Shown piece after piece: positions 28,701 through 56,359 of a DNA stretch of 60,828 bases (position 1 is its first letter; each line of letters opens with the position of its first letter). Where the stretch lies: the IMG/VR virus record IMGVR_UViG_3300035670_000220, positions 1-60,828 of that record. One strand, written 5' to 3'. A program made the position numbers and the translations under genes. This DNA comes from a virus (taxonomy: Duplodnaviria; Caudoviricetes). The notes below the pieces were generated by a model, which was given only the letters and a program-made list of their open reading frames with translations, was not told where the DNA came from and made no database searches.

Positions 28701-31700
28701 TACAGAACCAGAACCCGTGATATTTCCGTTGATTTGGTTTGTAATAAATTTGTGCGCGACTCCTGTACCGTAGTCATCAACTTCAAGAGTAACACCTGCA
28801 ACAGCATTTTCTGGCGTTGTAGCCAGCTTGATGTAGTCTCGGTTGATGGTTACCACATAGTAATGCTCTAAATCTGTTAGCCCAGTGATGACTGTTGCAG
28901 AGTCACCCTTGTCGTATTCAATTTCCGTACCAGTCAAGAAACCGTGCGACGGAATGTAGAAAGCGTTTAGGTTAAGGTCGATAGAAGTTCTAGGGTTGAA
29001 CGTTTTTGTGATTGTAGGAACACGACCAGCCGCACGAGCAGTAAAGCTTGTTGGCGATGGAACAGTAGCAATTGAGTAAATACCATCAGGGGTCTTGCTC
29101 AATGACTGGAGTGAGTGGACCCCAACACCAGCTGGGCTGGCTGTAAGGTCAACTGCAATTCCTGCATCAGCATCTTCAGGAGTCAAAGCAAGCTTGATAA
29201 GGTCTCCACTTACGAAGATAACGTAGTAAGGAGTTGCTGTTGTCAAACCACTGACTGGTGTCTGACCCTTTGCATCGTAAAGAACGAGTTCTTTTTGTAG
29301 GAACCCGTGGTTAGGTACAGTAATTGTGTTGTTGTCGTAATCAAGTGACACGATGAACAAGGATTGAGTTCCAGTACCTACTCCAGTGATGTTTGCAAAA
29401 CTGTTTAGGGCTGGAGTCAATGCAAGTCTTACAATGCTGGCGTTTTCCCTAAAGATGTAGTAAATGTTGTCATTTACTAGACCTGGAATGGTTGTTCCAC
29501 CACCGTTGTTGTATCTAACAGCCTGACCAGAGACCAGACCGTGGTTAGGAATAAAGAGACTGTCCTCAAGTTCGTTTACTGTAATGAAGATGAAGCTATG
29601 GCTAGTTCCTTCTCCTGGAGCAGTAAAGTTGATGTTGGTTGGGGCATCCAAAGCAACCTTTAGCTTGATTTGGTTAGCGTTCAGAACCTCAGACACATAG
29701 TAAGTAGTTAAATGTTGTAGAGGCGCGATAGAGCCGACATTAATACCAGCATCATTTCCGCTTCCGTTGTCATATCTAATAGGCTGGTCAACTGTAAATC
29801 CATGCGCTGTAATGGTGAGAGTATCAGTCACCGTGTTAACTACAACGCGGGAAAGAATGTCTGATTGGTCTGTTGAACGACCTGATGGAACTGTCAAGTT
29901 GACAGTTGAATATGTATCAGGAAGAGTTAGAGCCTGAAGCCTGTAAGTAAAGTTGTCTACCTTGTCTACATAGAGAATGTCGGTATTTGAAATACCAACT
30001 GGAGTAGCAGAATAGAACGTAGGTATTACAGCTTGGTTATCCACCAGACCATGCGGAGCTGCGCTGTAAATCAAATCATTATCAACATCGAAGTTAATAG
30101 GTACAAATGCGTGGTATGAATTTCCAGCAGCGCTTATAGAAATTCTGTTTGTTCCAGCATCAGCATCTGCTGCCGTTGGGTAAACCTCATTACCAGTTGT
30201 GAAGGATGATACCAAGGTCAAAACAACAGAGCCTTCGCCTGTGTTGTAGCTGCTTAGGTTAGTGATTGGGTTGCCATTAAATGTTGGTGCGCCATCGTAG
30301 TCACCTGTTGAAGTAGCAACATCTATTGCAGTAGTAGTGATATACGAACCACCACCACCACCAGACTCATTTGTTGCAGTGCTCTTAGCACCACCACCAC
30401 CTGAGTAGCCACCGCCACCACCAGACTGACCAGTGTTGGTTCCGTCAGAAGAACCACCACCACCAAAACCACCTTCTCCACCGATACGCGAACCGTTGGA
30501 GTTAGCAGTTAGTCCGTCTAAGAACGAACCGCCACCTTGCTCACCGAAAATCGAGTTTTCACCTCTTGAGAAGAAACCACCACCACCAGCAGACCTACCT
30601 CTGGTGTTTCCAATGTTTGCACGACCACCAAAACCAGGAGTCGTAGCGTTAGCTAGTGTGCCGTTTGTAGAAACTCCACCCAGCTGAGTTAGAACTGCAT
30701 CTTGACCAGAGAAAGCGTTAGGCTCTCCAGCACCACCACCAGCAACAAACAGAGGCTCATTACCAGTTTTACGAACAACAAATGTTCCACCACCAGAGCC
30801 ACCCCAAACGGTTCCGCTGTCTGGAGCAGAGCCTCGCTGGCCTACTGCAATAGTGATGATTTCGCCCTTTGTAAGAGAAACCTTTCCTCTTACAATTGCT
30901 CCTCGTCCAACGTTTGAGCTTGCGGTTACTGTACCGCTAGAAGAAGCCAAACCGATGTTTCCACTTGTTCTACTGTAAGTAAATTCAGTTGAGTTAATGA
31001 CTTCTAGAACTGTATATGTTCCGTTGTAAGTTCCGTTTGAAGCACTTGAAATTGTAAATGTTCTTCCGACAGCTAGCCCGTGAGCGGCTGTTGTTCTAAT
31101 TCTTGCTACGTTTGATGTAAGAGAAGTCTGATTAATTGTGCGGGTGTAGGAGCCAGTTCCTTCATAACCTGCAGCACCTCTAGCTTCAAACTGGTACAAA
31201 CCAGACACGGGAACTACCCAGTCTTGGTAGCCCTGAAAATCTCCCTGTTGGATGTACTGACCATGCCAGCTAGTTGAGTAGCCAGTCAAAATTTGTGCAG
31301 CAGTAGGTCCAACTCGACCAGTTTGACCGCAAGTTGTGAAAGTGTGGGTATTGCCTTGAATTGTGTAAAGAGACTGAACACCACTGAATGTGGCTTCTAC
31401 GTTCTTTAAAAAGTAAGTATTTCCACTTGTAAGACCTGTCATAGGGTCACCAGCGGTGTAGTACTTAACAGCTTGGTTAGTGGGGGTAGAGCTTCCAATG
31501 TTCAAAACTGATTCAGATAGAACAGGAGTGTTAAAAGTTACTCCACCCTCTGTTGAACCAGTAATGTCGATTTCGACATCTGAAGAATCTGTAAAAGATA
31601 GAACCCTTGGAGAAAGTCTTTGAGCGAATACCAAAGAACCATCTGGAAGACCAGCAACTTCTCCAACACCATCTGAATAGATGTAACTTGTGCCAGTTGT

Positions 31701-37238: not shown

Positions 37239-39146
37239 TTATACCGTCAAATTTCCACTGAGTAGCCAAGAATTAGGTCCAAGCTTAATCAAAGAAGCAA
37301 TTGCGTATCGAGCTTTAGTAATAATTCTTGAACCTTCTGAAAGAACACTAACCCCAGCAGCTCCAACGACAGTAACCTGACCAACACCTAGCTGTACGAC
37401 AACAATTTGCGTACCAGTTGGGAATGTATATCCACCAGCTCCATCCAACGGAACCGTAAGTGTCATTGCAGCAGAACTGTTCATTTTTACGATTGAAGCA
37501 ACATCTGCTTCTGAAAGAGTTACAGAGTTCAGATACTGGGGACCGACAAGCTCAAAGTTTGCTGGACCAGTAGGGCCAGTATCTCCTTGCGGACCAGTAA
37601 CTGCTGGACCTGTGGGCCCAGTTGGACCGGGAACAGTTGAAGCAGCACCAGTTGGACCTGTTGCTCCATCTTGACCATCTAAACCAGATGCACCTGTAGG
37701 TCCTTGAATACCCTGAGGACCTGTTGGACCAACAATCTGACCAACGTTGTTCCAAACAACGCCATTCCACACATACAAATCGCCTTCGTCATTGACGATG
37801 TATGCGTCATTTGTAACGTTCCCGCTTGTTGGAAGTTGTGAGGCTGTACCAACACTTCCCTTAAGTTGGATGGCTGTCCCTTGAGGTCCAGTGGGGCCAG
37901 TTGCTCCTCTGGTACCACCGCCGACTACAACATTCCATGAACTGTATGTGTTTCCTACACCATTAGCACCATCAAGAGTCACGGTGAATGAAGTACCAGC
38001 AATGTTGGTTAGAGTTCCCTCCATCCAGTTGGTGGGGACAAGCTGACTAGCCAACCTTGTTCTTGTACCTAAAGCAAATGCTCCTACTTGATTAACAATA
38101 AAGTTGACTGTTCCACTAGAAGAAATAGTTAAGTTGCTGAGAGAAGTAATTCCAGCAAAACTTGCTCCAGTTACACCAGTAGGTCCTGTTGGTCCAGTTA
38201 CTGCTGGTCCAGTAGGTCCAGTTGGTCCTGCAACCGTGCTATCCGCACCTGTTGGTCCAGTAGGACCCTGAGGACCAGTGGGACCCGGAATTGTCGAAGC
38301 AGCACCAGTTGCACCAGTTGCACCAGTTGCACCACGAAGACCTGCGTCTCCAGTTGGACCAGTTGGGCCCGTTCCACCAGTAGCTCCAGTCGGTCCTGTC
38401 GGACCACCCGAAGGTCCTGTAGGACCTGTCGCTCCTGTTGCACCAGTAACTGAAGGTCCTGTTGCACCTGTTGCACCTTGTGGACCAGTTGCACCCACGA
38501 AGCCTCTAGGACCTGTTGGACCAGCGGCACCTTGCGGGCCAGTTGGTCCTAGTAATCCGTCTGGACCAGTTGGGCCAATATCGCCAGTTGCACCAGTAGG
38601 ACCAGTTTGTCCAATAGGACCGCGCTCTCCTGTTGCACCTGTTGCGCCTTGTGCACCTGTTGGCCCGTAAGGACCTGTTGGGCCTGTGATATCTAAACCA
38701 TTTGCACCAGTCGGACCTGTGTTTCCTTGTGGACCAGTAGCACCAGTCGGACCAGTTGGTCCAGTAATTGTTGATGCAGGACCCTCTGGGCCAGTAGCAC
38801 CAGTTGGACCCGTAGGTCCTTCTGAACCGACCTGACTAGAAGCTGTTTCTACCCAGTAACCGTCATAGTAGACGTAAATTTTTCCAGTCTCTGAGTTGAA
38901 CCAAGAGTCACCAACATCAATGCCTGGTCCTGTTGGCGGTGTTGATGCTTCAACAATGAATGCGCCAGTTGCACCAGTAGGACCAGTTACGTTTGAGGCA
39001 GCACCAGAAGGACCAGTTGGTCCAGTAGGACCCACAACTGGTGAGATAACAAGTTCCCAAGCAACCCCAGTCCAAACCCAAGTTTGAAGACCAGACGTAA
39101 ATGTGTCGTTTACGCTCGGGCTATTAGGAAAATCAATCGCTGCCAT
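37239..39146 (-). CDS. Collagen-like fibre protein
   Basis: MAAIDFP N-terminus, long GPT/GAT runs, [12 protein letters not shown] module, C-terminal FPTGTQI...W.LSGNL domain. Confidence 0.85.
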
Positions 39147-39849: not shown

Positions 39850-42800
39850 CTACTCGTTCCCAATGTAAGAGCCATTGATGGTGATTTTACTGGAAGTAGC
39901 CAGAGTCACTGGAGCTGTCGCTGTTAGTGGTTCATACACTCCATTTGTTCCAAGGTAGAACAAGTCAAGAATTGCCGAACCTTCTGCTGTAGCAAATCCG
40001 ACAACTTTGTAGTCGTCTGTTGCAGTTTCTAGAGTTCCAACAAAAGATACTGAAACATCTGATTCTGGCAAAACAGGAAGAGTTACTGTGTATGGGCTTG
40101 AACCAAAGTTGCTTACAGTTGCAAAAGAAATCTTTGCTCTGAAGGTTACTGCGCGTCCAATTTTTGCATAACTACCAGTTGCAATAGAACCTGTGTAGGC
40201 CAATCCCACGGACTCAACAACTGGGGTATAGCTAAAGAACGAAGCCGTTCCAGATGGACCAGTAGCACCCGTAGCACCCGTAGGACCAATCTTGTCTACA
40301 ACATCAATGACACCAGCAATGCTTGGGTCAGTTACGTCTTGATAAATAATTTGTAGAGGAGCATCCAGAGGAACTTCCCAAACAATTACTGGGTCTGGAC
40401 TTGTTGTGTTCCTACCAGAAACAGTTGAGTTGTTTGTTGTTCCTGGAACAGTGGCTGTGTTTCCTGAAGAAAGACGAAGAGCAACAGAGTTCGTGAACTG
40501 AACATTGCTTGCGTCAAAGTACATTCTCTCGCCACGAACAGCGGTAAGCGTTGGGTTGTTTCCAACAAGACCAGAAACTTGATAAACCCCGCTGTCCCCT
40601 GTTGAGGTCAAGTAGTAAATAACACCACCACGAGGACCAGTAGGACCTTGAGGACCAGTAGGACCCGGAACTATGCTGTCAGCACCTGTAGGACCAGTTG
40701 GGCCAGTTACAGATGGACCAGTTGCGCCAATAGGTCCAGTAGGACCGACGATTTGACCAACAGTGTTCCAGTTGAGTCCATCCCAGATGTACAAGTCACC
40801 GTTGTCATCAACAATGTATGCATCGTTGACTAAGTTGCCTTCAAGTGGGAGGTTTGCTGCTGTTGTTACGCTTCCGCGAACATTGATTGATGTTCCTTGC
40901 GGACCAGTCGGACCTGTAGAACCTGTTGGGCCAGTAGGTCCAGTCGGACCTGTTGGTCCCGTAGAACCAGTAGGGCCTGTTGGACCAATAAGAGCACCAG
41001 CCTCAATCCAACCGTTCTCTGCTGTGTAGATATAAATGGTGTCTTCTTCGTAAATAACGTAGAAGTCGCCAACTTCTCCTGGTGTTGCACCAGCATCAGC
41101 AATGAACTCTGCGTAAGTGTTGTAGTAGCCCTTTGCTTGAGAACCAACACCTTGAGGACCAGTAGGACCAGTGACGATTGGGCCTGTAGCACCAGTCGAA
41201 CCTGTTGGCCCTGTGGGGCCAGTATCTCCTGTAGCACCAGTGGGTCCTGTCGGACCAATCTCACCCTGCGAACCAGTTGGACCTGTTGCTCCACCAAACT
41301 CTGTTGTACCAACTTCTACCCAGAAGTCGTCATAGTAGACGAATACAGCACCATTTTCTGTATCAAACCATGTTTGACCTGGGACTGGATTTTCTGGCGG
41401 AGAACCAAAAGCTGGAATGAACTGTCCATCAGCACCAGTAGGTCCTGTTACTTGAGAATCAGCTCCTGTAGGACCAGTCGGTCCTGTAGGACCAGTAGGT
41501 CCTGTTTCGCCTTGGATACCCTGAATTCCCTGTTCACCTTGCGGTCCTGTGGGACCAGTAGAGCCAGTAGGTCCTGTTACTTGAGAATCAGCTCCTGTGG
41601 GACCAGTCGGTCCTGTAGGTCCTGTTGCACCTGTAATTCCTCGATAACCAGTTGGGCCAGTAGCACCCGTTGCACCTGTCGGACCAGTAACTGTTGAGTC
41701 TGCTCCTTGTGGTCCCGTTGGTCCTGTAGGACCGATTGGAGCAGCACCAGTCTCGACCCAAAAACCGTCGTAGTAAACGTAAACTTTTCCTGTATTGCTG
41801 TTGAACCAAGCGTCTCCGTTGTCAGGTGATGTCGGAGGTGTTGTATCAGCAATTGCAAAATTACCTAGCTCACCTTGTGAACCAGTTGGACCTGTAGAGC
41901 CCGTTGCACCAGTTGGGCCAGTGGGACCAGTTGGACCTTGAATATTTCCAACGTTGTTCCATGTCTGACCAACTTCGTCCCAGACGTAAAGGTCACCACC
42001 AATTAGGTAACCATCACCTAGATTTCCTTCAACTGGTAGTTCGCTTGGGTCATTAAAACTTCCAAGGATGGTTACACCAGTGCCTTGCTCACCCTGAATA
42101 CCCTGTGCACCAGTTGGGCCTGTGGAGCCAGTTGGTCCAGTTACACCTTGTTCACCCTGAATACCTTGTGCACCAGTTGCACCAGTAGGACCAGTTACAC
42201 CTTGCTCACCTTGTGCGCCAGTTGCACCAGTAGGGCCAACCTCACCCTGTGCACCAGTAGGACCAGTCTCACCTTGAATTCCTTGAACGCCTGTTGGGCC
42301 AACTTCACCCTGTGCACCAGTTGCGCCTGTAGGACCAGTTACACCCTGCTCACCCTGAGCACCTGTAGGTCCAATCTCGCCTTGAGCACCAGTTGCACCA
42401 GTAGGACCAGTGTTACCGAGGTTACCTTGAGGACCAGTAGCACCAGTCGGACCAGTTGGACCTTCTACTGTGCTATCGGCACCAGTAGCACCAGTTGGAC
42501 CTGTGGGGCCTAACGCACCTTGAGGACCAGTAGGGCCAGTATCTCCTTGAGGACCTGTGGCACCTGCACCAGTTGCACCTGTAGGACCTGTAGGTCCTGG
42601 AACGGTTGATGCTGCACCTGTTGGGCCTGTTACTGCTGGACCAGTTGCACCAGTTGGTCCTGTAGGGCCAGTATCACCAGTGTCACCCTTAACACCCTGA
42701 GGACCTACATCACCTGTACGAGCAAAAGTTGTGATGACATCTTCGTTGTCAGAAAACTCTGAAGCAAGACCACTTACATAAGAAACTGGAACCTTGAAAT

Positions 42801-47293: not shown

Positions 47294-49891
47294 ATGACCA
47301 ACGACGAGACAAGTAGACTGGCTAAAGCTGCTGCCTTCTACTCAAGTCTTGGTTGGAGTGTCCTCCCGTGCCACGGAATTGTTGGCGGTCGTTGTACATG
47401 CAACAGGCCACATGGTGAACCTAAAGAAGTTGGCAAGCACCCCGCCCTCAACGAGTGGAACATTCAATCCACAAACGACATAGAGGTTATTACAAAGTGG
47501 TGGCGGGATAACCCAGCGTACAACGTTGGTGTCCACTGTTCTAAGTCTGGGTTTTTTGTAATCGACATTGACCCTCGTTCTGGTGGTCCAGAATCTTTTG
47601 CAAAGTTTGAAGAGTTGGTTGAAGGCGCACTGCCTCCCACTATCGAAGCAATCACTGGCACTTACACATCTGACAACGGCAAAGCACTTCGCGGTCGTCA
47701 CATCTTCTACCGATGCGATGACTCAGAAGGTTTAGTTGGCAATCTTTCCAAGATGGGCCTTAAGGGCATAGACATCAAACACAACGGATATGTGCTGACT
47801 GCCCCAAGCAAGCACTTCTCTGGTGTTGACTACGAATGGGTTCTGGGTAAAGAACCGTGGAACATTGAAATTGCTCAAGCTCCTGAAGAACTTCTTGCTG
47901 CTTTGCGTAAGCGAGCGAAGAGAAGCAACTACTCTCTTGGTGACGGAACTTGGGATTGGCTTGAGTCTGAACCAACAGTTGATGTCAGCAAAATTTTTGA
48001 AGAGGGTATTGATGAAGGCTCTCGTGCTGTAGACATTTACAAAGCTGCTTGCTCTCTGGCGAACAAGTACGGCACCGACGATGTGTCTCGTCAAATGATT
48101 GAAACAATGATGATTCGTTTCAATGCTGAAAAAGTTCGTCCACCACTTGAACTTGAAGGACCAGGTGGGCTTCTTATGCACGTTCACCGTGCTATTGACT
48201 TTGTTGCTGGTAATCCGAAAATTGGATTGATGAGTCCAGAAACTGCTGAGTGGATGAAGAAGCAGGGAAAGCGTCTTACGGAAAACACTCAATCTACCCA
48301 ACCAAAAGCTTTTACTGGAGTTGTTGCTCCAACACAAGGGCAAGGTGCTCTTCCTGCTTGGGGTAGAGAAGCTGTTCTTGCATCCATCGAAGATGGTGAC
48401 TCAATCGACAAGGCAGCGTCCATCTCCAACATGGACATTCCAAAAGACCCAGACGCGCTAGACCCACAGGATGGTGGAGACCAGAGAAGGCGTTCGCTTT
48501 CTGATACTGGTAACGGTCGTCGTCTTGTAGATGTTTTTGGTGCTGGTATCCGATACACAACTGGTCTTGGTTGGTTTGTGTGGAAAGAGGGTTACTGGAA
48601 ACCAGACCGCGAAGATTTGGAAGTACAGGAACTTACAAAGAGAATTCCACCAATCATCTCTTCCGATGTGAGTAGCTATCCAGAATCACAACAAAGCGAT
48701 GTGATTTCTTGGGCTCACTCTTCTCGTTCTAATTCTCGTCTTCGTGGCGCTATCGAAAGCGCAAAGTCAGACCCTCGTGTAGAAGTCGCGGTTGATAAGT
48801 GGGACAACGACGAAAACCTTCTCGGTGTTCTCAATGGTGTAATTGACTTGAAAACTGGAGAGTTGCTCAAGGGAAGACCAGACCTCTACATCACTCGTCG
48901 TGCACCAGTTACATACACAGCTGGTCACACCAACAAGAAGTGGGATGAGTTTCTTGACTTTGCAACTGGTGGAGACGTTGAATACAAAAACTGGCTGCAA
49001 AGGGCTGCTGGCTATTCACTAACTGGTTCTTCAAAGTACGACATTCTCTTCTTGGTATACGGACCTGCTGGTTCTGGTAAGAACACGTTTGTTGAGGCTT
49101 TAGTCAAGTGCCTTGGAACTCAGCAGTATGCGTGGCCTCTTGACTCAAGCATTCTTGCTCAAGGGGATGGAACCTCAAGCAGCACTGACCTTTATCACTG
49201 GGCAGAGCTTCGTGGTCGTCGTGTTGTTTGGGTTGACGAACTTCCAGAAACTGAGCGAGTAAAAGAAAACGCTGTAAAGAAGTTGACTGGTTCTTCTGAA
49301 ATTTCTGCACGTTCTCCCGGTGAGAAGCCATTTACTTTTGCATCTCAAGCAAAGCTTTGGATTTCAACTAACCACCGACCCATCATCACCGACGATGCAA
49401 TGTGGCGTCGTATTCGTCCTATTCCGTTCCTCCGTGTTCCAACAACACCAGACCCAGAGTTGAAGGAATATATCTTTGACCCAGAAGGTGCACTCCCAGC
49501 CGTTCTTGCTTGGGCTGTTGAAGGAGCGATGAAGATTCTTAACAGCAACGAGAGAGACCCTCTTGGTTGGTGCACAAAGGTTTCAGAAGCCGCAGATGTC
49601 TATCGAAAGAACGAAGACCGTATCGGAATCTTCTTGGATGAAGAAACTGAGGTCTCTAAAGGCTCAGAAACACCAGTCAAATCTCTCTATGGTGTCTACA
49701 GACGATGGTCAGAAGATAGAGGCGAGAAGGCTATGACTCAGATTGCTTTCCACAGAAAACTTGTTGATAGAAGTTTGGAAGTAGAAGGTCTTGGTTCAAA
49801 GGCTGTCGTCAAAGACATGCTGTTGATACCGAGAGTATTGTCAACTCCTACGGACGTTGACTGGAGTGTTGTCACCAGAATTGCACGTTAG
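47294..49891 (+). CDS. Bifunctional prim-pol primase fused to a D5/P4-type SF3 helicase
   Basis: GWSVLPC...GKHP...NVG...VIDID...GRHIFY prim-pol motifs; D5_N-like region; GPAGSGKN Walker A, VDE, KKLTG, TNH.P. Confidence 0.93.
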   Translation: MTNDETSRLAKAAAFYSSLGWSVLPCHGIVGGRCTCNRPHGEPKEVGKHPALNEWNIQSTNDIEVITKWWRDNPAYNVGVHCSKSGFFVIDIDPRSGGPESFAKFEELVEGALPPTIEAITGTYTSDNGKALRGRHIFYRCDDSEGLVGNLSKMGLKGIDIKHNGYVLTAPSKHFSGVDYEWVLGKEPWNIEIAQAPEELLAALRKRAKRSNYSLGDGTWDWLESEPTVDVSKIFEEGIDEGSRAVDIYKAACSLANKYGTDDVSRQMIETMMIRFNAEKVRPPLELEGPGGLLMHVHRAIDFVAGNPKIGLMSPETAEWMKKQGKRLTENTQSTQPKAFTGVVAPTQGQGALPAWGREAVLASIEDGDSIDKAASISNMDIPKDPDALDPQDGGDQRRRSLSDTGNGRRLVDVFGAGIRYTTGLGWFVWKEGYWKPDREDLEVQELTKRIPPIISSDVSSYPESQQSDVISWAHSSRSNSRLRGAIESAKSDPRVEVAVDKWDNDENLLGVLNGVIDLKTGELLKGRPDLYITRRAPVTYTAGHTNKKWDEFLDFATGGDVEYKNWLQRAAGYSLTGSSKYDILFLVYGPAGSGKNTFVEALVKCLGTQQYAWPLDSSILAQGDGTSSSTDLYHWAELRGRRVVWVDELPETERVKENAVKKLTGSSEISARSPGEKPFTFASQAKLWISTNHRPIITDDAMWRRIRPIPFLRVPTTPDPELKEYIFDPEGALPAVLAWAVEGAMKILNSNERDPLGWCTKVSEAADVYRKNEDRIGIFLDEETEVSKGSETPVKSLYGVYRRWSEDRGEKAMTQIAFHRKLVDRSLEVEGLGSKAVVKDMLLIPRVLSTPTDVDWSVVTRIAR

Positions 49892-51297
49892 CGAGGAGTA
49901 AACACTCTTCCGCCTCCACCAAAGTTTCTTGGGTTAGGAAGCCTTCTAGCTGCTGGCGATTTAGCGGTAAGACGACCACCTACAAACCCTGCTGGTGGTT
50001 TGATTAGCAATGCAGTCATTGCGTGAACCAGAGCATCTACTCGGTCTGGCGAGTTCTTTGTTTCTCCTGGAATCCATGCTGTCATCTGAGACTCAAGGTC
50101 TGGCAGATAACCAATGTGGTGTACTCGCTCTTGCTCATAGGCAAGAACAACTGGTTCTGCTCGAAGAGCCTTGCCATGTTTTGAATGAACTTCTAAAACT
50201 TTGATAGCTGGGTCAATCGCATTGATGGCGTTACGAACAAGTGCGCCACCTTGGTTTACTTCAGCAATAACTGGAGCTCCCCAACGTCTAGCCATCTCAA
50301 CAACTTTGTTAGCCCACACTTCTGGTGAGCCGTGAATGGTTGCGTCTTCAAGAACCCAAGCGTGTCTCTTGTAAAGGTCTCGGTCTGCTGTGGAAGCACA
50401 AACCACAATTCCGCACTCGTCTCGTGGGTTCTCTGCAACTGAGGGGTCAACTCCGATACAACGAAGTGGGGCAGATGGGGGAAGAGCTCCTTGTCGAGCC
50501 TTTTCAATCATTTCAATAGTCCAGAGAGCGCCCTCAACGTCGTCAAGCATCTCACCGTAAAGTTCTTGAGCAGCAAGTCTTGTTCCCTGATACACACCAG
50601 TGATTGCTTGGAGATACGCCTCGGACAAGTTTCCAGCGTTGTCAAGTGTCGAACCTTTAGATATAACAACACGACCTGATTTTGCTTCTTCAATAAGTTG
50701 ATAAAGAATTGGAACTCGTTTTGGTGTCGTGGTCGCAATAATTTGTGGATGTGAGCCCAAACGACAAGCAACTCGCAAGTTGTCCCAAGATGTCATACCT
50801 GCAGCATCGGGAGTTTGACGCCAAGCAGCAAGCTCGTCAGCCCATGCGTAATGACACTGAGGACCACGAAGACCATCGGGTTCGTCAGCAGTAAAAAGGG
50901 TTGCCGTGTTTCCGTTGGGCCAAGTCAGACGGCGCTTTGATGGCTCATAGTGTGGTTTCTCGGAGGGTGGGGAGACATTCATAATCCCCGACTCACCTTC
51001 AACAATAACGTCACGAACGTCAGCGGCAGTACGAGCCACTAAAGCAAAGCGAAGTTGACCTTGGGAAGTGTCTTTTGCTTTCTCTCTAACCCACTCAGCA
51101 GCACTTCTTGTTTTGCCAGAACCACGACCAGCAAGATAAAGCCAGATAGACCAGTCGGTTCCATCAGGTGGACGTTGTTCGGGACGGGCCCAAGAAGACC
51201 AGTCCCAAACAAGCGTGTCCATATCAATGTCGGCTAATACAGCCTGACGTTCTTCTTCGGGCAAGAGAGCAATCTGCTCCATCAAACTCTTACCCAT
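49888..51297 (-). CDS. terL: Terminase large subunit
   Basis: AGRGSGKT Walker A, LRGPQ..AWADE Walker B, TTTP, nuclease motifs GVDP, EVNQGG and SPDRVDA. Confidence 0.93.
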   Translation of the reverse strand: MGKSLMEQIALLPEEERQAVLADIDMDTLVWDWSSWARPEQRPPDGTDWSIWLYLAGRGSGKTRSAAEWVREKAKDTSQGQLRFALVARTAADVRDVIVEGESGIMNVSPPSEKPHYEPSKRRLTWPNGNTATLFTADEPDGLRGPQCHYAWADELAAWRQTPDAAGMTSWDNLRVACRLGSHPQIIATTTPKRVPILYQLIEEAKSGRVVISKGSTLDNAGNLSEAYLQAITGVYQGTRLAAQELYGEMLDDVEGALWTIEMIEKARQGALPPSAPLRCIGVDPSVAENPRDECGIVVCASTADRDLYKRHAWVLEDATIHGSPEVWANKVVEMARRWGAPVIAEVNQGGALVRNAINAIDPAIKVLEVHSKHGKALRAEPVVLAYEQERVHHIGYLPDLESQMTAWIPGETKNSPDRVDALVHAMTALLIKPPAGFVGGRLTAKSPAARRLPNPRNFGGGGRVFTPR

Positions 51298-51308
51298 AAA
51301 AACCGCCT

Positions 51309-51797
51309 TTAGTTGGTGTGTCTCTGAAGACTCCTCTGCACACCATAATAGAGCGGAGCAGCCGAACTAAGTCCCATGAACTTAGCGAGGTTCGAAAGAG
51401 AAATACCAGACATGTATTCAGACCTAAGTTGGTCGTGATACTCGTTTGTGCCCTTCTCCTTGGCAGAGCGTACTCGTTCCGCAGCTGCCTCGATGTTTTG
51501 TTCCTTAAGTCGAATCTTTGGCTTGACATCGGAGACGGCGATGTTGCTCATTGCAACACGACGACGGACTCCTGCGTAAGCGACATTAATTCGCTTGGCG
51601 AGCAAAGGAAGGCTTCCTCCTCTGTTCTGAAATTCCTTCAGAAGTTCGGTGTATTGCTGGCTTGCCTTGTGCTCTGCTGTGTCTTGGTTGCGCCGTCCAT
51701 AAGCCTTCTTTGCCAAAGGCAAGATTGGCTCAATCTTGGCTGCATATTCTTCTACGAGCTCTCGGCTCATGTATCTCTCCATTATTGTCGTTACCAC
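51309..51797 (-). CDS. Tandem-HTH DNA-binding protein; candidate terminase small subunit or regulator
   Basis: Two HTH-like repeats (GGSLPLLAKRINVAY; GISLSNLAKFMGLS) directly upstream of terL; start may be ATG 51782 or 51770. Confidence 0.6.
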   Translation of the reverse strand: MVTTIMERYMSRELVEEYAAKIEPILPLAKKAYGRRNQDTAEHKASQQYTELLKEFQNRGGSLPLLAKRINVAYAGVRRRVAMSNIAVSDVKPKIRLKEQNIEAAAERVRSAKEKGTNEYHDQLRSEYMSGISLSNLAKFMGLSSAAPLYYGVQRSLQRHTN

Positions 51798-51874
51798 CGC
51801 ATGTCCCTAGGTATAAAAGATAGCATGAAAAGCTAGAAAAGCCAAGTTTGGCCCTAAATTTATTTCCCTGACTT

Positions 51875-52072
51875 TTAGTCCTTGAAATCCCAGACTTCGA
51901 TGCTTTCCTCTTGCTCAACAAGCCAGTTGTCTTCTTTTGCTTCTGCTTCAGCCTCAATACGAGCAAAAAGAGACATTAAAGACATAAAGGTTAAAACCCC
52001 CGCTCCCAGAAGGGTCAGTACGACAACGGCAAAAACTCCCAGAGCCAGTACTAGCTGTCTAATAACTTCCAT
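51875..52072 (-). CDS. Small membrane protein
   Basis: ~30-aa hydrophobic N-terminus, acidic tail, GAGG SD. Confidence 0.7.
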   Translation of the reverse strand: MEVIRQLVLALGVFAVVVLTLLGAGVLTFMSLMSLFARIEAEAEAKEDNWLVEQEESIEVWDFKD

Positions 52073-52099
52073 AGTCGTTCCTCGTCATTTCTTTTTAGA

Positions 52100-52282
52100 T
52101 AAACCGCTGCTGCTGCCACGGTTGCCTCACCATCAACGACTGATTGCGGGTCAGTCTCTGGATGCAGCTCTCTGGACCACCTCCTAAGACGCACTGCCAT
52201 TAGAGTCCTAAATCAGACTTCCGATTTACGAACCTCCTGACTTGTCTTTGGAGTTCCAGCGGTAGGAGTTTTATTTCCTAGC
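52100..52282 (-). ncRNA. Putative structured non-coding RNA (multibranch)
   Basis: Closing helix ACCGCTG/CAGCGGT enclosing several nested stems; a G-U pair favours the minus strand; TATACT -10 at 52287-52292. Confidence 0.55.
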
Positions 52283-52294
52283 CGAAAGTATAAA

Positions 52295-52978
52295 TCAGTC
52301 AGAGCTTGACGATTTGATTTTCTCTCTTTCTATACCTGACAAAACGCTAGAAACAGTAGACGCATACCAGCGTTTACCCCCGTGAACAGTGGGAATTCCT
52401 TCGGAATTCAAAGTCTCAGCGATATTTCGAAGTGACACGCCAGCGTCTCTCATAGTCGCAATTTTTGCTTTTGTATCGTCTTCAACCTTTGACTTGGGGC
52501 CGATATCCACACCCCAAACCTTTCCGTTGTCCCTTCGGTCTTTGTGGACATCCTTTTGGCGCAGAGAAATCATTCCTCGCTCCATTTCTGCCATCGCAGA
52601 CATAACAGTCACAACAAATCTTCCCTGATAGGTGGCTGTGTCCAGACCGAGGTCGAGCATAGCAAGACGCCATCCGTTCTTATGTGAGCGGTCCACAATG
52701 CTAAGAAAGTCGCGGGTAGAACGGGCAAGTCGGTCAAGACGAGTTACATAAAGTGCTTGCGCTCTTCCCTCATCCAAATCAGAAAGTGCTTTTGTCAGAA
52801 CTGGTCTACCTGTAATGCTTTTACCAGAGCGACCTTCCTCACGGAGAATAACTGCCTCATACCCAGCCGCTTCAGCTGCAGCGATAAGTTGCTTCTCCTG
52901 TGCGCCAAGGCTAATTCCATCTTCCACCTGCATCTGTGTGGATACTCGCGCATAGCAATAAGCAATACCCTCAGACAT
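52295..52978 (-). CDS. Serine recombinase (resolvase/invertase family) with C-terminal DNA-binding segment
   Basis: YARVST..Q catalytic Ser, SGK...RP.L, RLDRLAR, AEMER; C-terminal SLRNIAETLNSEG...W. Confidence 0.9.
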   Translation of the reverse strand: MSEGIAYCYARVSTQMQVEDGISLGAQEKQLIAAAEAAGYEAVILREEGRSGKSITGRPVLTKALSDLDEGRAQALYVTRLDRLARSTRDFLSIVDRSHKNGWRLAMLDLGLDTATYQGRFVVTVMSAMAEMERGMISLRQKDVHKDRRDNGKVWGVDIGPKSKVEDDTKAKIATMRDAGVSLRNIAETLNSEGIPTVHGGKRWYASTVSSVLSGIEREKIKSSSSD

Positions 52979-53204
52979 CATTTTCCTTGTGGTAGTTCGA
53001 ATAACGAACACTTGCATTAGCTTGGTCAAGTAGTTCGTTGGGACACGCATCTACAGAAGGTTCGTATGTGTTACCACAGTCAAAGCACTCCCACGACATG
53101 TCAAGAATTGCTTTTTGGTAACCCTCATTGAATCCGTGTAGATGTGTCCAATACTCAGAAAGACGCTTTTCCTCTTCTGCTTCCTTAACTTTCTTCTTAC
53201 TCAT
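52971..53204 (-). CDS. Small Zn-ribbon protein
   Basis: WECFDCG...ACP; ATGA overlap with thyX. Confidence 0.65.
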   Translation of the reverse strand: MSKKKVKEAEEEKRLSEYWTHLHGFNEGYQKAILDMSWECFDCGNTYEPSVDACPNELLDQANASVRYSNYHKENDV

Positions 53205-56287: not shown

Positions 56288-56359
56288 GCGCCGCGTCAAG
56301 GAATTGAACCCTGCTAATCGGTTTTGGAGACCGATTTCCTCCCAGAGGCCACGACTTGC
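56288..56359 (-). tRNA. tRNA-Trp(CCA)-like element with defective acceptor stem (pseudo-tRNA)
   Basis: Anticodon arm ATCGGT-CTCCAAA-ACCGAT, T arm CAGGG-TTCAATT-CCTTG, short D arm CCTC-TGG-GAGG; acceptor strands GCAAGTCGT/ACGCGGCGC have four central mismatches; no encoded CCA end. Confidence 0.7.

Follow-up and report, generated by a model that had tools for sequence, protein, structure and literature searches.

The put sites of phage HK022 and the boxA/boxB elements of the lambda nut sites are phage cis-acting antitermination RNAs, and in frameshifting of the dnaX/prfB type, an internal Shine-Dalgarno (SD) sequence and a structure downstream of it act as stimulators. Actinobacteria possess RNase J. 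The element called STAB-SD is described as a non-initiating SD sequence that binds the 3′ end of 16S rRNA and blocks 5′-to-3′ decay by RNase J1 (PMC4113751), and a polypurine sequence is described as stabilizing the processed katG mRNA in mycobacteria (PMC2358910). For membrane proteins, SD-like pauses early in the open reading frames (ORFs) are presented as a proposal (Fluman et al. 2014, PMC4359368). Here, we analyzed a viral fragment of 60,828 nt (IMG/VR record IMGVR_UViG_3300035670_000220, Caudoviricetes; completeness estimate, 46%), which is hereinafter called the window. The subject of this work is the 222-nt non-coding gap at 52073–52294 on the minus strand, lying between a serine recombinase gene and a predicted membrane ORF of 65 amino acids (aa), and the apparently undescribed RNA element within it, which bears an extended SD-like motif flanked by covarying hairpins and appears to have outlived the gene in which it arose.

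The origin of the gap became clear from a comparison of 75 viral loci encoding the recombinase; many of them are duplicates or near-duplicates, and the counts refer to loci, not to lineages. A large ORF begins 30–90 nt past the recombinase gene in 60 of the 75 loci; it is absent from 13, and two loci are cut by the contig end. When complete, this ORF comprises 604–1126 aa (>1145 aa where cut by the end of the locus), and the proteins have a signal peptide and a linker of low complexity, a repeat region rich in Ala/Thr/Val, PE-rich stretches and, at the C-terminus, a hydrophobic segment with a basic tail; in one of them (L026), a PA14 domain was recognized (26.4 bits vs. the cut-off of 24). Over its length, the window gap can be aligned with the 5′ coding part of such a gene, the 744-aa ORF of locus L006. 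A nucleotide profile (nhmmer) of 21 diverse large genes, all intact and represented by their first 390 nt, gave one significant match in the window, at 52203–52095 (E 3.5e-8; next best, E 0.044). The same profile found the stumps in two other gene-less loci, L003 (E 3.4e-12, profile positions 32–282) and L053 (E 3.8e-7, positions 51–273); the window match ends at position 278, all three stump matches thus ending between 273 and 282. By blastn, the gap gave 74% over 94 nt to the genes of the L004 type and 78% over 121 nt to L003. None of the three frames of the window gap is free of stops, and the pieces of homologous peptide, DSNGSAS*EVVQRAAS and TDPQSVVDGEATVAAAA, are found in different frames; the L003 and L053 stumps keep a single frame with in-frame stops present. 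Because of the stops and the frameshift, tblastn of the large-protein N-termini against the gap returned only E ~1.8–2.3, so that the case for a remnant rests on the nucleotide searches and synteny. As judged by these, the gap is almost certainly a relic of the first ~220 nt of a large secreted-protein gene, left by deletion or replacement, and it should be labelled as a gene remnant. In most of the related phages, this gene separates the recombinase gene from the packaging genes. The intergenic RNA gene envisaged by the initial annotation gives way to a stump of coding sequence, whose conserved element is intragenic in most relatives.

The structure of the downstream part of the stump was deduced from an alignment of 31 distinct sequences homologous to 52203–52095 (28 in intact genes and three in stumps, identical copies collapsed). 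The element (52095–52203, −, as delimited by the nucleotide profile; 52085–52210 as the match to covariance model R1) folds, according to RNAalifold, into two stem-loops. Stem-loop A (52124–52168, −) is irregular and has a basal helix formed by 52168–52160 and 52131–52124, with hairpin A (52138–52156, −) on top, where GACUGA (52156–52151) and UCAGUC (52143–52138) enclose the loop CCCGCAA. Hairpin B (52104–52121, −) pairs 52121–52115 with 52110–52104. Over the 17 pairs, 96.4% of the cells are paired vs. 80.6% after shuffling, and the covariation score is 0.476 vs. 0.157 after shuffling and 0.06–0.09 when the partners were slid. Double changes occur in 13 of the 17 pairs, and any of five measures was reached by 0 of 500 shuffles; as the sequences are related, this shuffle control overstates the significance, while the slid control does not.

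All parts of the structure contribute to this result. In the basal helix, six of the seven pairs show changes on both sides and 94.9% of the cells are paired; the window keeps six of the seven. All four consensus pairs of hairpin A show double changes, one of them being CG in 12 sequences, UA in nine, GC in eight and AU in two, with no broken cell, and CGC is kept in the loop in 31 of 31. Hairpin B has six consensus pairs with 99.5% of the cells paired, three of them with double changes (for example, CG 16, UA 14, UG 1, none broken); in the window it has one internal mismatch. An intact gene obtained by pattern scan in addition to the 31 sequences (L162) has the hairpin A stem GGAUGG/CCAUCC around the same loop. 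The G-U cells number 26 and the A-C cells only six, which favors the gene-sense strand (96.4% paired vs. 92.6% antisense). The covarying pairs fall on first and second codon positions in a stretch whose amino acids are free to vary (E/G/D/V/S and others), so the coding constraint cannot explain them. We conclude that the downstream half of the gap is, very probably, a real conserved RNA structure. The inner GACTGA/TCAGTC hairpin and the CATC/GATG region proposed earlier belong to it, being conserved with covariation together with the hairpin at 52121–52104. As for the signal-peptide coding part, a candidate conserved hairpin there found no support (63.4% vs. 59.3% paired; covariation score attained in 85 of 500 shuffles).

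Upstream of stem-loop A lies AGGAGGUGGUCC (52174–52185, −), an extended SD-like motif that perfectly complements the 16S rRNA 3′ tail. Its 11-mer core, present in all 31, reads GGAGGUG followed by A/G, U, C/U and C. The same 11-mer is contained in an oligonucleotide described as designed to complement the 16S rRNA 3′ end (10.1101/132274), and the complementarity is judged here by that oligonucleotide. The two variable positions seem to change only so that G-U pairing to the rRNA tail would persist. As read from the alignment, neither the window nor the main sequence types have an ATG, GTG or TTG 5–12 nt downstream of the 11-mer, and in the intact genes the 11-mer is internal to the ORF. There, it is read in two frames, giving ASSGGDPQ vs. 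ASSEV(I/V)Q; on the alignment, this is a clear case of a nucleotide sequence conserved across a frame change, the constraint being nucleotide-level, not protein-level. In L049, L056 and other intact genes (alignment columns 27–50), where GGDPQ stands against EV(I/V)Q, a one-base deletion is seen before the motif and an insertion ~15 nt later restores the frame. A cis partner was also sought in the window, and no other site within one mismatch of the complement of the 11-mer was found.

The second linear motif is the UGCGUC block (52188–52193, −), in which GCGUC is invariant in 31 of 31 sequences. The UGCGU part can pair with the ACGCA/GCGCA stretch of the 7-nt hairpin A loop (52149–52145), the five pairs being formed in 26, 31, 31, 31 and 29 of 31 sequences, respectively. 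This candidate pseudoknot is without covariation support because both of its sides are invariant.

Further evidence comes from the stumps themselves. The window and L003 have the same junction to the same 65-aa ORF, which means that they split after the gene had been lost. The identity between the two is 77.3% in the conserved element vs. 61.0%, with indels, in the 5′ half of the gap (Fisher P 0.011), and amounts to 67.5% in the membrane ORF and 74.8% in the recombinase gene. The hairpin A stems of the three stump lineages (window, L003 and L053) are GACUGA/UCAGUC, GGGUGA/UCACCC and GGUCGA/UCGGCC, respectively: two pairs differ between the window and L003, both compensated, and L053 adds further compensated differences. 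On a shorter scale, we used assembled contigs from three other samples that are 95–97% identical to the window, span the whole gap and share the stump architecture. Only two substitution events were counted in the 109 nt of the element (52165 and 52172, both in unpaired alignment columns), nine in the 91 nt of the 5′ half, 3–5 plus A-run indels in the 22-nt linker adjoining the membrane ORF, and ~9–10 in 206 nt of the recombinase coding sequence. Two events in the element vs. 12–14 in the other 113 nt of the gap correspond to a binomial P of 0.003–0.008. By these comparisons, the upstream half of the stump is decaying, and the downstream half is the slowest-evolving part of the gap, under detectable purifying selection. 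We infer that the element is probably still functional in this gene-less phage.

The third stump lineage, L053 (2466–2760), retains one frame with two in-frame TGA codons, and directly past its hairpin B there is an 11-bp perfect hairpin (CCCAGGCAATA...TATTGCCTGGG) ahead of the terS-like gene. The gene-less loci L018–L025 and L030 have no trace of the element; their gap comprises ~288 nt past the recombinase gene and, on a three-frame reading only, seemingly contains a short hydrophobic ORF on the opposite strand.

The distribution of the element was studied with the covariance model R1. In the window, it gave one strong copy (83.5 bits, E 2.4e-18; next, 12.8 bits), and four of the five whole viral records searched have one strong copy each, together with weak matches in the repeat region of the large gene. 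In the window, weak profile or model matches with a three-base GGN periodicity lie at 38944–39051 and 41475–42191, which suggests a collagen-like repeat gene in that region. Pattern scanning of viral contigs gave at least 117 matches, of which 80 were fetched and 19 proved to be strong model matches; L162 came from a new contig, and L165 was a weak match. The same scan of bacterial and archaeal genomes yielded at least 120 matches, and none of the 80 fetched fit the model, indicating that the pattern alone is unspecific. In metagenome DNA, the pattern was found at four loci, all of the L004 intact-gene type by profile search. A blastn search with 51800–52500 against 50,697 deposited phage records returned nothing. 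Within the sequences covered by these searches, the element is a feature of one family of large gene in one group of uncultured phages, and not a universal cis site. It was found neither in Rfam nor in the literature on mRNA stabilizers, SD-like pausing, the phage group, and internal or anti-SD sequences, and is thus apparently new.

What could such an element do? The best overall explanation, which we put forward tentatively, is that of a gene relic carrying a selected cis-acting RNA element for ribosome docking. A 30S subunit or a ribosome would dock on the single-stranded non-initiating SD sequence, held in place by the flanking hairpins, and, like STAB-SD, would shield or mark the message that reads on through the membrane ORF and the terS-like gene to terL. 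Where the large gene is intact, ribosomes translating the secreted protein would, in addition, be slowed by the element at an early point. This pausing role cannot explain conservation in the stump. We consider it possible, with rather more doubt, that the docking serves mRNA stability or processing. A fuller version is more doubtful still: a phage RNA module braced by the pseudoknot (UGCGU with the CGC loop) and hairpin B, which would present a perfect complement of at least 11 nt to the 16S tail and capture the 30S subunit without initiation, and which, having evolved inside a secreted-protein gene, would now also be a free-standing noncoding leader; in a widespread group of aquatic phages of the actinobacterial type, it would control how the late packaging message is stabilized, processed or loaded with ribosomes.

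A number of observations speak against ribosome docking on a selected element. In intact genes, the element lies 60–135 codons inside the ORF, an unexpected place for a 5′ stabilizer. The basal helix begins 4 nt past the SD-like motif, so that it may be unable to coexist with a fully accommodated 30S subunit. Chance would give 0.88 occurrences of the 11-mer, one mismatch allowed, in 60.8 kb; the significance of the motif thus rests on conservation, not on occurrence. The thermodynamic stability of the element is unremarkable (z −0.37), and L003 has four of seven basal-helix pairs broken in the alignment used. The substitution counts given above were taken from consensus assemblies at a depth of 5–10, with some of the differences located beside the A-run indel. 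Nor is the element universal: R1, which was given 59 of the 87 loci (copies seen to be identical in this stretch were left out), is strong in 31 of these 59; relatives whose large gene is of another N-terminal type lack the element, as do the gene-less L008, L018–L025 and L030 and all five deposited phages tested, with one 21.5-bit match in Atuin.

The rival that survives best assumes that the element works solely in the intact gene, as a translational pause after the signal peptide emerges or as local mRNA structure, and is merely left over in the window. It draws on the strict tie of the element to one N-terminal type of large gene, with its absence where the type is absent, on the proposed SD-like pauses early in membrane-protein ORFs (PMC4359368), on the location of the motif ~30 codons past the hydrophobic signal segment in several genes, and on the loss of part of the basal helix in L003. 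We regard it as unlikely, given that precisely in the gene-less relatives the element is the slowest-evolving part (two vs. 12–14 substitutions, as above) and that compensated changes in hairpin A separate the three stump lineages, the window and L003 having split after the gene loss. Moreover, across intact genes the motif follows the signal peptide at anything from ~30 to ~95 codons.

According to a second rival, the RNA acts on transcription, as a two-hairpin, put/nut-like cis element that modifies or attenuates RNA polymerase so that transcription reaches the packaging genes. One copy per genome, in the sense strand and just upstream of late/packaging genes, a two-hairpin layout with an invariant loop and linear motifs, and retention after the gene loss are what such an element would look like. 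It would leave unexplained, however, the exact complement to the 16S tail with its wobble-preserving variation, and the element is absent from many relatives. The scan of 51700–52500 gave no terminator-like site in 52073–52294, by which an intrinsic terminator within the gap was rejected; the only one in the range scanned is at 51838–51855 (−), a 7-bp stem with a T-rich tail situated between the 65-aa ORF and the terS-like ORF. The UUUAUCU that comes after hairpin B in both the window and L003 falls short of the rule of the terminator scan. On balance, a role in transcription seems quite improbable. The TATACT noted previously as a −10 box is indeed there, directly behind the recombinase stop codon; a scan for sigma-70-type promoters found no promoter-like sites in 51700–52500.

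We assign little probability also to a DNA-level site, that is, a pac signal, a recombinase target or a single-stranded DNA replication hairpin lying in a dispensable gene and spared by deletions. It would agree with the single copy, which adjoins the recombinase gene near terS/terL, and with three stumps ending at the same profile position. This shared end-point coincides, however, with a repeat of the GCAGCAGCAGC type that recurs inside the large genes and could be a mere deletion hot spot. The recombinase is present in all 75 loci and the element in only about half of the distinct ones, and the covarying stems, conserved loops and excess of G-U over A-C cells (26 vs. six) point to a single-stranded sense molecule rather than to a duplex protein-binding site.

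The least tenable rival is the fold proposed in the initial annotation, an independent multibranch noncoding RNA of ~180 nt filling the whole gap, which the following data make highly improbable. The complementary segments do exist: ACCGCTG 52103–52109 with CAGCGGT 52257–52263, GACTGA 52138–52143 with TCAGTC 52151–52156, CATC with GATG, GGAC with GTCC, and GAACCTCC (52230–52237) with GGAGTTC (52250–52256). The 9-bp hairpin at ~52209–52228 is also present, and its A·C on the plus strand is a G·U on the minus strand. The minus strand of the whole gap folds at −70.6 kcal/mol with z −2.34, five of 200 shuffles being as good; the plus strand has z −0.32. Yet z ≤ −2.3 is reached by nine of 87 arbitrary 222-nt minus-strand windows of the contig (mean −0.83, standard deviation 1.13), so the whole 222-nt fold is not above chance and is thermodynamically ordinary for this phage. 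The 5′ half (52294–52204) alone has z −3.01, with two of 200 shuffles as good, vs. −0.37 for the conserved 3′ half (−1.85 for its 73-nt core), which means that folding energy alone pointed to the wrong half. Stronger values than that of the gap were also seen in minus-strand background windows at ~34400, 21800, 33700 and 47700 (z −3.5, −3.1, −3.0 and −2.8, respectively; 222 nt, 25 shuffles each).

In relatives, the additional helices fail. Contigs from two further samples have G>T changes at 52261 and 52262, which break two adjacent pairs of the closing helix, and the 9-bp hairpin has lost a pair at 52221 in close relatives, in both cases without compensation; the latter hairpin has no counterpart in L003, the nearest relative. 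The 5′ half of the stump (52204–52294, −), in which three lineage-specific hairpins can be drawn, including the 9-bp one and GAACUCC/GGAGGUUC, is therefore not supported as a conserved structure; it is only 61% identical to L003, and RNAalifold on a 25-sequence alignment reaching the gene start gave the same helices only, with no consensus pair upstream of the element. In favor of the larger fold, the GAACUCC/GGAGGUUC hairpin can also be drawn in L003 and L006, and six of nine 5′-half substitutions fall at unpaired positions of the minimum-energy fold, which is not significant. The hairpin itself (GAACTCC/GGAGGTTC, CUCC...GGAGG, 52230–52256, −) can be drawn for the window, for L003, where two of its pairs are G-U, and within the L006 coding sequence; across these three lineages it would sequester the first, upstream GGAGG, and close relatives change its loop only (52242 and 52247). 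What stands of the earlier proposal is a conserved covarying structure on the minus, i.e., gene-sense, strand upstream of the membrane ORF, the terS-like gene and terL; it covers not the whole gap but ~65–110 nt (52203–52095), with no conservation of the closing helix or of the remaining 5′ half, the 9-bp hairpin included. The remark that the family could not be recognized was borne out: Rfam gave no matches at the gathering score in the window and none overlapping 52073–52294 at E ≤ 10, and an intact-gene copy (L016, 4100–4650) gave only chance-level matches of 10.6–12 bits. ARAGORN found neither a tRNA nor a tmRNA in the gap.

All genes around the gap are on the minus strand. The serine recombinase gene of the resolvase type (52295–53050, −) was identified by Pfam Resolvase PF00239 (E 4.2e-34) and Recombinase PF07508. 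The 65-aa predicted membrane ORF (51875–52072, −) in the ORF list has GAGGA 7 nt ahead of its ATG and no Pfam match; its sole relative, found by using the ORF as an alignment query, is in the L003 contig (55% identity), and single-protein scans of viral contigs and of the metagenomes revealed none. The idea that this ORF is the C-terminal remnant of the large protein was rejected, as by eye it resembles neither the C-termini nor the membrane ORF of ~60 aa found past intact genes; with the full-length large proteins as tblastn queries, no match to the window was obtained at E 1e-3. A 49-aa ORF at 52200–52051 was likewise rejected as a small gene: L003 switches frame after ~10 residues, and A-run indels shift the C-terminus in close relatives. 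The 162-aa ORF preceding terL (51309–51797, −) is small-terminase-like (terS-like) by position only, with no Pfam match, and is kept at 86–92% in five viral loci.

The large terminase gene terL (49888–51297, −) encodes a protein sharing 80.4% identity over 469 aa with the terminase large subunit annotated in Actinomycetia phage DSL-LC01, described as metagenome-assembled from lake metagenomes (PMC10611076), and 61–63% with the large terminases of large Microbacterium phages. It is the last gene of the minus-strand block and converges, with a 4-nt overlap, on a plus-strand ORF of 865 aa (47294–49891), which looks primase/helicase-like. In DSL-LC01, unlike the window, terL is followed by further genes and the portal gene on the same strand; the differing neighbors suggest a rearrangement next to terL. 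Elsewhere in the window, ARAGORN found tRNA-Leu (anticodon AAG, 30327–30415, −) and tRNA-Trp (anticodon CCA, 56290–56358, −).

If functional, the element would represent a new RNA motif with strong covariation, so far confined to uncultured aquatic phages of ~125–136 kb, and an example of an RNA structure written into a coding sequence, which constrains amino-acid-changing positions and holds its 11-mer through a frame change. The stumps would then be a natural experiment in which the host gene has been deleted and the RNA kept, making the function of the RNA separable from that of the protein. The element would also offer a small system for testing what internal SD sequences contribute to pausing, stability and ribosome docking, which is under dispute.

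How does this locus compare with the systems described? Like other phage gene remnants, it is homologous to coding sequence in relatives, contains stops and a frameshift, and occupies a variable locus between conserved modules; it differs from ordinary remnants in that half of it is under detectable purifying selection and keeps a covarying structure. With frameshift sites of the dnaX/prfB type it shares a non-initiating SD sequence inside an ORF followed by a stable stem-loop; a programmed −1/+1 frameshift site was nevertheless rejected, the spacer being ~4 nt, no slippery heptamer (X XXY YYZ) being present, and intact genes having one continuous ORF. The resemblance to put and nut consists in a short linear motif and small hairpins with conserved loops, present in a single copy in a phage operon, from which a cis activity may be supposed by analogy; in contrast to the element, these sites give no reason for an anti-16S complementarity, and no sequence or model likeness to them emerged in the Rfam searches. 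The SD-like pauses, as presented in PMC4359368, also involve an SD-like motif that follows a signal or hydrophobic segment in a secreted-protein gene, whereas here the exact nucleotides are conserved together with the neighboring hairpins, the signal peptide lies anywhere from ~30 to ~95 codons away, and the motif persists where it is untranslated. The closest parallels are the STAB-SD of Bacillus thuringiensis cry3A and the katG stabilizer, described as non-initiating SD sequences that complement the 16S 3′ end upstream of genes in Gram-positive or actinobacterial hosts. The element has in common with them the 16S complementarity, the absence of initiation and a place upstream of the genes whose transcript it would protect. 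A stabilizer of this kind would, in addition, lie near the 5′ end of a primary or processed transcript and prolong its half-life by binding the 30S subunit. It differs from STAB-SD in its longer complementarity (11–12 nt), in its covarying flanking hairpins and invariant UGCGUC, and in its intragenic position in most relatives.

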